64,000 bases of DNA. Origin: Escherichia phage slur14. Positions 25,687 through 30,198 of the stretch are shown one piece after another. Position 1 is the first letter of the stretch. Each line of letters starts with the position of its first letter. The notes under the pieces are model-generated. The model did no database searches. It had not been told where the DNA came from and saw only the letters and a list, made by a program, of their open reading frames with translations. The stretch lies in sequence record NC_028448.1. One strand, 5' to 3'. The translations under genes and the position numbers were made by a program.

Positions 25687-26157
25687 CTAGCGATAAAAAC
25701 CAAAGTGACGATTAGCTTCAACAATCTTTCTTTCTTCTTCGGACATTCTCCAGCGTAGTCCAACATCAAAATGAGCCCAGACCATCCTAACAAATGCATT
25801 TATATCTTTAATATCTTCAATAATGAATGTTTTACTTTTAGAAGGTTGACTCGCTAATTTAACTTTATCGTCTTCAAACATGTCAAAAAGACCATATTCA
25901 TGAGCTCTTTTATAGCCTTTAATAGTTAAAGCTTCAGAAGAAGAAAACGGTGAATCAGTATTCTGCAAAATATCTTCAGTATGCTTTATAATTAGAATAA
26001 TATTTTCTGGATATTTTCTTTCTTTTATATCTTTAATTAAAATATCCGGATTTTCTGCTAAAGGAATAATTAACGAGCAATTTTTATCAAGTGTATTTAC
26101 TGATTTACCTTCTTTGGACATAAATTCTATTGAATAATGTTTTGCTACTTCAATCAT
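25687..26157 (-). CDS. Hypothetical protein (156 aa)
   Basis: ORF in the modA.x/mrh region. Confidence 0.55.
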
Positions 26158-26310: not shown

Positions 26311-26514
26311 TCATGATTTATCACCGTAAATATCTCTCATTAATTTAAGAGCTGAGCGCTCTAATTTCTTTTCTTGCTCAGCTTTAATCATAGATTTCAT
26401 CCACTCTTCTGATTCGTTCTGCATTTCTTTATTTGCTTGTTCAACCCAGCCATCATCAATATACATTGAGTTTGGTCTATTGAGCCATTCAAGAATCTTC
26501 TTCAGAACTTTCAT
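26311..26514 (-). CDS. Hypothetical protein (67 aa)
   Basis: ORF; charged, helical-looking. Confidence 0.5.
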
Positions 26515-26974
26515 TTATTTTACCTAAAACAATAGTAGGAGCATCGTCAAATTCATGAATTTTTAGCAAATTTGGTTTTAAATTATTCCATACATAATAA
26601 ATAAAGTATGATAAAGCATCTTCACTCGCAATTATAAATTTATTTCCTTCATTTATTTTCCAGTCATATACTGAATCGTACGAATAAAAAGATAAAGGAT
26701 TACCATTATATTGTTCTGCGCTAACATTAATGTATTCGGATTTAGTAAATGCTTCAATTGCTCTAAACGGACTATTTGGCACAGTTTCAATAATTCCGAT
26801 CTTTTTAAGTTTTATTTCAACATCTTCTGGAACTGGCATTGAAACGAAATTTTCTACGAGATACATAGGGTTACAATAACCCTTATCAATCACTACGGCT
26901 ACAGTAATTGGAACATCTTTAGCAAACGACATGCTATTACTGCTAATATACATTTCAAACAAAATCGCTTCCAT
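26489..26974 (-). CDS. Hypothetical protein (about 161 aa from an internal ATG with GAGGAAAAT RBS)
   Basis: The track ORF 26489..27007 is trimmed to the RBS-supported start. Confidence 0.5.
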
Positions 26975-26982
26975 AATTTTCC

Positions 26983-27315
26983 TCAATCGCAAGATGTAGA
27001 TGAACAACCAGAATCACAAGAACTTCCGCATGAATCACCTGCCCATACATGAACAGGGACATTTGTATCATATGAATCAGAACTAGACTGTGTATTAGAT
27101 GATGTAGTAGGTACTGACCAGCGCCAAGGATTTTTATAATATTCTTGGGCTTCTTCATAAGTCATAGTAACTGCTTCTACTGTTCCATCTCCCATATAAA
27201 CATATTCAACTACAGTTAAAGAGAGGTAGTCATTTGAAATAGGAACTACACCTTCTCCGGGAGTTGTAGAGAAAAAATCCGTAAAGAAACTTTTAAACCA
27301 ATTAAAGATAAACAT
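26983..27315 (-). CDS. Hypothetical protein with a Cys/Ser-rich C-terminal tail ([18 protein letters not shown])
   Basis: 110-aa ORF, TAATG-coupled to the upstream ORF. Confidence 0.5.
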
Positions 27316-27521
27316 TACAAAAAGCCTCTCTTGAATTCGACTTGCTTTTCGCCATAATCATATCGAATCTCTGCATTAAATTCGACAGAACCATCTGCGT
27401 ACATCATAAATGAATGCACAACAACTTCTGTAGACCATGGCTGTAGTTCATATTTCTTCATTACATGTCGTGAAATGATAATATCTAAATCTTCATTTGG
27501 TTTAATCCAGCGATTTAACAT
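27315..27521 (-). CDS. Hypothetical protein (68 aa)
   Basis: ORF downstream of the early promoter at 27545..27575. Confidence 0.5.
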   Translation of the reverse strand: MLNRWIKPNEDLDIIISRHVMKKYELQPWSTEVVVHSFMMYADGSVEFNAEIRYDYGEKQVEFKRGFL

Positions 27522-27544: not shown

Positions 27545-27575
27545 TCTATTATACCATACTCATTTTGGAAAGTAA
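27545..27575 (-). promoter_or_regulatory. Early promoter (TTTACT-N17-TATAAT)
   Basis: GTTTACTTTCCAAAATGAGTATGGTATAAT on the minus strand. Confidence 0.6.
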
Positions 27576-27583
27576 ACCATTTA

Positions 27584-27611
27584 AATGAAAAAAGGACTCC
27601 CGAAGGAGTCC
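27584..27611 (-). terminator. Intrinsic terminator after soc (GGACUCC-UUCGG-GAGUCC + U6)
   Basis: 7-bp stem followed by TTTTTT on the minus strand, immediately after the soc stop. Confidence 0.7.
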
Positions 27612-27617
27612 TTGAAT

Positions 27618-27879: not shown

Positions 27880-28089
27880 TTAAATTACATGATTATTTAT
27901 AATAAATTCTCGCGGAACGTTAAAATACCCAATTTTAGTTAATATAACAACATCGCCGTTAATAATTACCGGAGAATAATCTTCTGGAGCATTAAATTTC
28001 CAATGGGCTCTAATATTATATCCATCAGAACCAAATGCTCGACTAGCCGGTCTCCCGGCTTTTTGCCATGCATAAAAATCAAATTTCAT
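27880..28089 (-). CDS. Hypothetical protein (69 aa)
   Basis: ORF. Confidence 0.5.
   Translation of the reverse strand: MKFDFYAWQKAGRPASRAFGSDGYNIRAHWKFNAPEDYSPVIINGDVVILTKIGYFNVPREFIINNHVI
27894..27901 (-). promoter_or_regulatory. Late promoter TATAAATA for soc
   Basis: Exact TATAAATA on the minus strand about 30 nt upstream of the soc ATG. Confidence 0.65.
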
Positions 28090-28283
28090 TTTGAATGCTC
28101 TATAATTAATTTTAAAGCTTCTTCACTGACAAAAATTTCGTCAGGACCTTCTATAATTTCAACCATACGAAGTTGATTAGTTAAGAGCTCACACACGAGC
28201 TCTTTGTTATAATCTTTAAATAGCTGGTCAATACGTTTCTTATGGGCTTTCTTGAGCTGGCGTTTATTTAAACTAGCCATCAA
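28086..28283 (-). CDS. Hypothetical protein (65 aa)
   Basis: ORF with ATGA overlap. Confidence 0.5.
   Translation of the reverse strand: MMASLNKRQLKKAHKKRIDQLFKDYNKELVCELLTNQLRMVEIIEGPDEIFVSEEALKLIIEHSK

Positions 28284-28858: not shown

Positions 28859-30198
<1,340 letters not shown>

Follow-up and report, generated by a model that had tools for sequence, protein, structure and literature searches.

Escherichia phage slur14 (sequence record NC_028448.1) carries on its minus strand, at positions 26983 to 27315 of the 64,000-nucleotide stretch analysed here (the window), a small open reading frame (ORF) that encodes 110 residues followed by a TGA stop codon and whose product ends in a Cys-rich tail. 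This ORF is, with near certainty as to identity and anatomy, the T4-type phage gene mrh.1, of the Pfam family DUF7206. The 1.5 kb of DNA around it is 100% identical to that of Escherichia phages slur03/slur08 (genus Tequatrovirus, T4-like) and matches 503 phage records at an identity of at least 80%; in the RefSeq record of the identical slur03 stretch, the same coding sequence is labelled 'Mrh.1 hypothetical protein'. The protein scored 95.6 bits against PF23836 (DUF7206; E 3.5e-27, cutoff 25.6 bits), with residues 3-110 aligned to positions 1-107 of the 107-position profile, and belongs to phrog_2031 (E 1.3e-33). It is about 88% identical to T4 Mrh.1 (UniProt P20706) over residues 1-92, and a 3-residue deletion in the linker accounts for the length of 110 residues in slur14 and slur03 as compared with 113 in T4. 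Thus, the whole-model score, the synteny and the three family motifs were all those of a DUF7206/Mrh.1 protein. The NCBIfam and PADLOC profile libraries gave no match for Mrh.1 (PADLOC at E <=1).

The gene and its family are already catalogued with an uncharacterised function, so that mrh.1 is not a new ORF; as an accessory gene it is genuine, codes for a protein and is transcribed early. A literature search on mrh.1, DUF7206 and P20706 retrieved no study of the Mrh.1 protein, the gene being mentioned in supplementary tables alone. In the literature searched, neither the strict S-C-D...S-C-D-COOH end motif nor the N-terminal helix, both presented below, appears to have been described.

The initial annotation of this ORF, made from the sequence alone and without recognising it as mrh.1, had pointed out four Cys in the last residues of the protein, and these were confirmed by the translation: the only Cys of the 110-residue Mrh.1 are at positions 96, 100, 104 and 109, with spacings of 3, 3 and 4 residues, all within residues 93-110 (26986-27039). 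Considered within this single genome, such clustering is no more than suggestive. The frequency of Cys was 1.2% in the ORFs of the window with at least 100 residues, and the probability of finding four or more Cys in a given 15-residue stretch from composition alone was 2.7e-5; among all the six-frame ORFs of the window with at least 60 residues, about 0.6 such stretches were expected and 4 were seen, the remaining three sitting in antisense or out-of-frame ORFs. The decisive evidence that the Cys tail is genuine is, as judged from the aligned sequences, its conservation across relatives.

When 1.84 billion representatives were searched exhaustively with the profile, 22 clusters emerged, all of them phage-type, and no bacterial homologue was among them; two of these 22 representative clusters, P0042 and P0052, were discarded as spurious repeat proteins. 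A profile search of a 5.8-billion-protein set yielded 149 clusters, all carrying PF23836, among which the family motifs were retained down to about 30% identity. The low-complexity filter of tblastn never aligns the tail, query coverage ending at residue 92, and for this reason tail conservation was taken from the retrieved proteins; the tail statistics were computed on 142 full-length family members. The protein ended in C-D in 140 of these 142 members and in C-N in the other 2, and the diverged member of phage RB69, RB69ORF025c, ended in C-E. The context of the penultimate Cys was S-C-D-S-G, S-C-D-S-S or S-C-D-T-G, and of the 343 Cys counted, 276 were followed by Asp and 317 were preceded by Ser. 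No Cys was present outside the tail in 134/142 full-length members. The pooled non-redundant tails consisted of 38% Ser, 14% Gly, 14% Asp, 9% Cys and 7% Tyr, with a mean net charge of -3.4, and contained no Glu, Lys, Arg or Leu.

Only C100 and C109 are family-wide, giving a family core of S-C100-D-S...S-C109-D110-COOH; C96 and C104 are an addition specific to Tequatrovirus, to which the four-Cys form is confined, and the tail of phage ESCO47 has three Cys. Within Tequatrovirus the Cys codons showed synonymous TGC/TGT changes that left the peptide DSCGSSCDS[G/S/I]CSSTSCD unchanged. The last two Cys were separated by 4-10 residues across the family, through Gly/Ser. The condition that the initial annotation had set for its own refutation, a Cys tail conserved in no homologue, was thus not borne out: the C-terminal Cys motif was kept in 142/142 members, although only two Cys were family-wide and their spacing ranged from 4 to 10 residues. 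Judged from these alignments, no part of the family other than the GDG hairpin is conserved as rigidly as the Cys tail.

The remainder of the protein was divided into regions by combining the family alignments with AlphaFold2 models. The model built on a 4-sequence alignment was poor, with a predicted local distance difference test score (pLDDT) of 46.6; an 81-sequence alignment raised it to 58.8, the gain being in the helix and the hairpin alone, and the values given hereafter are those of the latter model. Residues 1-15 (27271-27315) comprise an N-terminal amphipathic helix of 9-15 residues, modelled at residues 3-15 with a pLDDT of about 71, that may serve as a putative membrane-targeting or docking element; it corresponds to the family motif M-I-x-[WF]-[LI]-K-x-[LF]-F, which always started at residue 1 in the alignments and is Phe-rich in slur14. 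Its hydrophobic moment was 0.45-0.68, a value reached by 2-8% of shuffles. Residues 19-27, PGEGVVPIS (27235-27261), contain a conserved Pro/Gly motif, P-G-E-G-[MV]-[VI]-P-[IV], where P19 and P25 were nearly invariant in the 81-sequence alignment. The sole confidently folded core lies in residues 34-61 (27133-27216), where a beta-hairpin (strands 34-40 and 46-52) is followed by a short helix (53-61) with pLDDT values of 72-84; it carries the family motif E-Y-[VI]-Y-M-G-D-G-M-M-E-E-V, with E37, Y40, G42, D43, G44 and E47 invariant.

Residues 62-92 (27040-27132) are a variable, disordered, acidic Ser/Thr/Asp-rich linker whose length and sequence differ by genus, with indels and no conservation in the alignments. 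It leads to the fourth family element, a Ser/Tyr/Asp/Gly stretch closing with S-C-D-S-x(3-6)-S-C-[D/N]-COOH, that is, a thiol/carboxylate tail. The N-terminal helix motif, the hairpin core, the variable linker and the Cys-containing end were common to all 142 full-length relatives. The whole of residues 62-110 was predicted to be disordered (pLDDT about 39-47 for the linker and about 40-46 for residues 62-110 and for the tail, in the apo monomer). The Ser/Thr-rich linker and the hydrophobic N-terminal region noted in the initial annotation are therefore real features, the latter being the Phe-rich N-terminus, while its suggestion that the tail could be a metal-binding knot did not stand as far as a folded knot is concerned: the tail has 2-4 Cys, no C-x-C and a pLDDT of about 40-46. 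A search for transmembrane or signal-peptide-like segments found none, the best 19-residue Kyte-Doolittle window scoring 0.88. A secreted protein or a lipoprotein was rejected, as there is no signal-peptide-like hydrophobic region, and the tail thiols should be reduced because Mrh.1, having no signal-peptide-like or transmembrane stretch, would be cytoplasmic. A fold search of the model in BFVD retrieved family members only.

On the upstream side, mrh.1 abuts mrh.2 (27315-27521, minus strand; 68 residues, phrog_1873), whose TAA stop codon overlaps the mrh.1 ATG as TAATG, in agreement with the coupling reported in the initial annotation; a Shine-Dalgarno sequence, GAGAGG, lies 9 nt upstream of this start. 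On the downstream side, mrh (26489-26974, minus strand) encodes a 161-residue protein of Pfam T4_MRH and phrog_1234, as identified from the ORF list, Pfam and the annotation; its ATG is 8 nt past the TGA of mrh.1, a stop codon that overlaps the Shine-Dalgarno sequence of mrh, GAGGAAAA. Just upstream of mrh.2, a sigma-70-type promoter-like site (27548-27576, minus strand; TTTACT-17-TATAAT with TG before the second hexamer, 10/12 matches) was picked out by consensus scan only. This site probably drives an early mrh.2-mrh.1-mrh-srh unit, which agrees with T4, where the RNAs of mrh.1, mrh.2, mrh and srh are classed as 'early' (PMC9697503 supplement). A strong intrinsic terminator-like hairpin with a 9-bp stem, a 4-nt TTCG loop and a T-run is found after soc (27592-27613, minus strand). 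The hairpin and the promoter-like site are within 20 nt of each other and form a compact boundary between late soc and the early mrh.2-mrh.1-mrh-srh unit.

The annotated order at the slur03 locus is dda, srd, modA, modB, modA.2-4, srh, mrh, mrh.1, mrh.2, soc, 56, dam, 61, and its soc - mrh.2 - mrh.1 - mrh - srh segment has the same order in T4. An arrangement of soc, one or more small ORFs, DUF7206, T4_MRH, a srh-like gene and Mod was kept in two further lineages and in RB69. Using three family members as tblastn queries, mrh.1 was found in at least 770 phage records, of T-even-type phages with Enterobacterales hosts that include Escherichia, Shigella, Salmonella, Yersinia, Citrobacter, Klebsiella, Enterobacter, Serratia, Erwinia, Kosakonia, Edwardsiella and Hafnia. 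In records starting at the conventional T4 origin it is located about 12-16 kb into the genome, and the family is almost always positioned between soc/mrh.2 and mrh.

The association with the neighbouring genes is not strict. The TAATG coupling is not universal, other genera having a different or an extra small ORF upstream of DUF7206, and an obligatory partnership with mrh.2 was rejected, as the ORF directly upstream of DUF7206 is non-homologous between genera. A distant, 194-residue family member (locus L010) lies in a different phage context without Mrh. In RB69 (NC_004928.1, positions 1795-2684 of locus L015) the annotation splits mrh into two short ORFs (61 and 69 residues), an additional 59-residue ORF separates mrh from the mrh.1 homologue, and this homologue, RB69ORF025c (82 residues), is intact and diverged. 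An obligatory partnership with Mrh is weakened by the L010 member and by the split mrh annotation of RB69. Together, the variable upstream ORF, the split mrh of RB69 and the occurrence of the family without Mrh make it unlikely that the function of Mrh.1 depends strictly on Mrh or Mrh.2.

Two kinds of variants of mrh.1 were noted among the database copies. Shigella phages Sf22/Sf24, Yersinia phage fPS-90 and Escherichia phage 235Ecol030PP (cluster P0003) encode 164-residue forms with a 54-residue insert in the linker, containing ...DDTMEEIIRQPEKAGNVGAGALPLNSKKLKEHL..., and an unchanged Cys tail; in sequence the insert is similar to the second strand of the hairpin together with the linker in other genera (compare ...GMMEEVIRPHEAVKACNVGPGSIPINANELKERV in P0049), which suggests a partial duplication or a recombination between genera. 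Several other copies are frameshifted or truncated, namely L005 (2095-2425), P0006, P0004 and P0038. In L005 the frame breaks at a T-run, GAT TTT TTT, which codes for D-F-F. Such broken copies may stem from sequencing errors at homopolymers, or some may be pseudogenes.

Other features of the region deserve a brief mention. ModA.3 (25687-26157, minus strand, 156 residues) is a second full-length T4_MRH paralogue (E 3.6e-38), and thus two Mrh-family genes lie about 300 bp apart at this locus, flanking srh and modA.4. A 186-residue ORF (29638-30198, minus strand), whose stop codon overlaps the start of dam (28859-29638), showed a sub-threshold Pfam likeness to DpnII (E 0.0045, 16.8 bits against a cutoff of 23) and also to BanI, and carries a D...E-I-K nuclease-like motif. 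It is a candidate GATC-type nuclease coupled to the phage Dam, which would make a restriction-modification-like pair in a T-even phage; T4 is not known to have a gene at the corresponding spot beside dam. Between soc and gene 56 (27880-28283, minus strand) there are two small ORFs of 69 (DUF7422, E 1.2e-46) and 65 residues, at a position where T4 has the homing endonuclease gene segF; this difference from T4 is a typical mobile-element polymorphism.

Regarding expression and phenotype, data are available from T4, a phage in which about 45% of the genes are still without a function (PMC8076793). In a dual omics study of T4 infection the mrh.1 RNA was classed as 'early' and the protein was left unclassed (PMC9697503 supplement). 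The tryptic peptides of Mrh.1 are 8, 53, 4 and 45 residues long, which makes the protein effectively invisible to standard tryptic proteomics; because of these lengths, its not being detected in proteome data says nothing about its absence. Targeting dCas13d to the ribosome-binding site of T4 mrh.1 (CRISPRi-ART) gave a 'Semi-Fit' score of 0.79 with a p value of 0.069, and mrh.1 was one of the five semi-fit T4 genes of unknown function in this genome-wide knock-down; mrh, mrh.2, srh and soc were 'Not Fit' in the same screen (PMC11879866 supplement).

What, then, could such a protein do? Our best guess, which we put forward tentatively and from sequence features, is that Mrh.1 could be an early protein at the periphery of the membrane, with a flexible tail serving to chelate a divalent metal or an Fe-S (iron-sulphur) centre. 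Mrh.1 would remain in the cytoplasm, where its N-terminal helix would anchor it to the cytoplasmic side of the membrane or to a partner. The tail would provide a set of thiolate/carboxylate ligands, Cys2Asp2 in most genera, possibly completed by dimerisation, and Cys4 in Tequatrovirus, and early in infection these ligands would hold a divalent ion, such as Zn2+ or Fe2+, or else a labile Fe-S centre, for the purpose of buffering, of delivery, or as a switch for the folded part of the protein. Metal binding seems the most plausible chemistry for this tail because an Asp follows each conserved Cys, the free C-terminus is fixed, Glu, Lys and Arg are missing from the tails, the protein is predicted to be cytoplasmic and the tail to be disordered. 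In addition, the last two Cys are separated by a variable 4-10 residues of Gly/Ser, and therefore a flexible chelating loop would fit better than a fixed fold.

Known sites offer a partial precedent for this chemistry. The Zn(II) site in the N-terminal GMDCxxC domain of E. coli ZntA is made of an Asp and two Cys, and labile Fe-S sites, such as those of IscU (C-G-D) and NsrR (3Cys+Asp), typically involve Cys/Asp ligation. The likeness lies in the combination of thiolates with an Asp carboxylate, in a flexible or exposed setting and with a labile or transferable metal. They are, however, built on folded ferredoxin-like or scaffold domains with a defined spacing, whereas Mrh.1 would use a disordered tail with a spacing of 4-10 residues and an Asp directly after the Cys, and there is no sequence homology. 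The resemblance of the tail to a Cys/Asp metal site is one of analogy, not of membership. The Cys/Ser/Gly/Asp-rich tail of Tequatrovirus also recalls metallothioneins, which usually have at least 9 Cys in C-x-C/C-x-x-C clusters; in contrast, Mrh.1 has 2 Cys in most genera and 4 in Tequatrovirus, without such clusters and confined to the short tail of a protein with other conserved parts, and a Pfam scan of Mrh.1 retrieved no metallothionein family at E <=1. The zinc-binding anti-sigma (ZAS) motif H-x3-C-x2-C is likewise absent from the sequence, which had no Pfam ZAS match.

A similar reasoning applies to the N-terminal helix. The membrane helices of MreB (MLKKFRGMF) and MinD (GFLKRLF), as read from the E. 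coli K-12 genome, follow a pattern like that of the family, MI(K/N)W(L/I)K(N/S)LF, with similar hydrophobic moments; compared with the MreB, MinD and MinE helices, that of Tequatrovirus is longer and Phe-rich. The putative membrane role is an analogy and not membership of that class, and the helix could instead dock on a protein.

Several points weigh against the metal-ligand proposal. Two Cys per chain, as found in most genera, are too few for a self-contained Cys4 site, and a Cys next to an Asp is not known as a metal motif. The N-terminal helix exceeds shuffles in amphipathicity only moderately, and it could equally be a protein-docking peptide. When PDB sequences were searched with the profile of the family, with the tail peptide and with the neighbouring Mrh, the one match was marginal, non-significant and to a capsid protein, and a Foldseek search of the Mrh.1 model against the PDB gave nothing at E <2.9. 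Finally, the protein has never been detected, which is uninformative given the lengths of its tryptic peptides, and the fitness signal (p 0.069) is weak.

The same flexible arm could be read as a redox-active dithiol, the two conserved Cys cycling between dithiol and disulfide as in the alpha subunit of class Ia ribonucleotide reductase, and exchanging with thioredoxin or glutaredoxin (those of the host, or T4 NrdC), whether to sense redox state or to serve as a decoy or competitor. The design is indeed shared: the NrdA tails of E. coli (...DDGCESGACKI) and T4 (...ADDCAACKL) are flexible extreme C-termini with a Cys pair beside acidic residues, and the formation of a disulfide would tolerate the variable spacing between the Cys of Mrh.1. 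Nevertheless, we consider a redox role unlikely. The likeness to NrdA is compositional only: Mrh.1 has neither a reductase domain nor homology to NrdA, its Cys are 4-10 residues apart as compared with 2 or 4, and its terminal residue, directly after the Cys, is acidic or Asn. Moreover, acidic neighbours raise the pKa of a thiol, which is unfavourable for a fast redox shuttle, and the strict Asp after each Cys and the free C-terminus would be left unexplained.

It is also improbable, in our judgement, that the conserved ends of Mrh.1 act as metal-free short linear motifs, with the terminal S-C-D...S-C-D-COOH and the N-terminal helix docking on a protein partner, either a host protein or the megadalton Mrh assembly encoded directly downstream, and the Cys serving as hydrogen-bonding or packing residues. 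The placement of conserved elements at both extreme termini with a variable linker in between is typical of tethered linear motifs; mrh.1 followed by mrh is a conserved and closely spaced order in several genera, and Mrh assembles into a very large, megadalton complex in vitro (PMC8076793). Against this, the family also occurs without an adjacent Mrh (L010) and in RB69 with mrh annotated as two pieces, and the mrh knock-down was without a fitness effect, unlike that of mrh.1 (PMC11879866 supplement). In addition, pure docking motifs of cytoplasmic proteins do not usually have an invariant Cys.

A bolder proposal, that we regard as very unlikely, is that the tail is a thiol warhead: the tethered C-terminal Cys-Asp-COOH would enter the catalytic metal site of a host membrane metalloenzyme, for instance FtsH, and inhibit it in the manner of a cysteine switch or of a captopril-type thiol, alongside the sigma-32-related mrh and srh. 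FtsH is a Zn protease that degrades sigma-32, phage lambda CIII inhibits it through an amphipathic helix, and a thiol plus a carboxylate is the classical pharmacophore of Zn-protease inhibitors. Mrh.1 has the matching parts, namely a membrane-type N-terminal helix, a long flexible linker and a thiol beside a free carboxylate at an invariant position, and its genomic neighbours are annotated as modulators of sigma-32. As to its target, however, this proposal is wholly inferential; neighbourhood in the early regions of T4 is a weak guide to function, and the second S-C-D unit and the Ser/Tyr/Asp region would be unexplained. Should it be true, mrh.1, mrh and srh would form a three-gene module retuning the heat-shock circuit of the host, and Mrh.1 would exemplify a new class of enzyme inhibitor, encoded by phages and based on a linear motif at the C-terminus.

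The more speculative suggestion of the initial annotation, that of a modified-peptide-like core, would correspond to a ribosomally synthesised and post-translationally modified peptide (RiPP) precursor, on whose Ser/Cys-rich C-terminus a maturase would install thiazole/oxazole rings, lanthionines or Cys-Asp thioethers by cyclisation or cross-linking. Such a precursor is scarcely credible: the Ser/Cys/Gly/Asp-rich composition does resemble microcin B17 (McbA), ranthipeptide and lanthipeptide precursors, but the supposed core is invariant instead of variable and is the best-conserved part of the protein, the supposed leader is conserved and structured, with a folded hairpin and an amphipathic helix, as in a folded or targeted protein, the gene occupies a fixed syntenic early position in strictly lytic phages of many genera, and no RiPP-type match was found in Pfam, NCBIfam or PADLOC. 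The accompanying remark that no modification enzyme lies nearby proved right, as the annotation from dda to gene 61, together with Pfam scans of the unnamed neighbours, revealed a helicase, Srd, ModA/B, Mrh paralogues, Srh, Soc, gp56, Dam and a primase, and no YcaO, Lan or radical-SAM/SPASM maturase. Overall, the defining features tested for a metallothionein, a ZAS domain, a ribonucleotide reductase tail, a PADLOC family or a RiPP precursor were not those found in Mrh.1. The probability remaining after the metal-ligand proposal and these alternatives falls to something else.

In summary, our work provides a hypothetical protein with a precise anatomy, consisting of two terminal motifs and a disposable linker, that is conserved across the T-even-type phages of Enterobacterales, and the terminal motifs represent a cheap experimental handle on Mrh.1. 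The gene is not new in either case, and if the tail has no role with metals, Mrh.1 would be another small early accessory protein. If, on the other hand, the tail binds or targets a metal centre, Mrh.1 would add a phage-encoded player to the takeover of the metal, redox or heat-shock physiology of the host.

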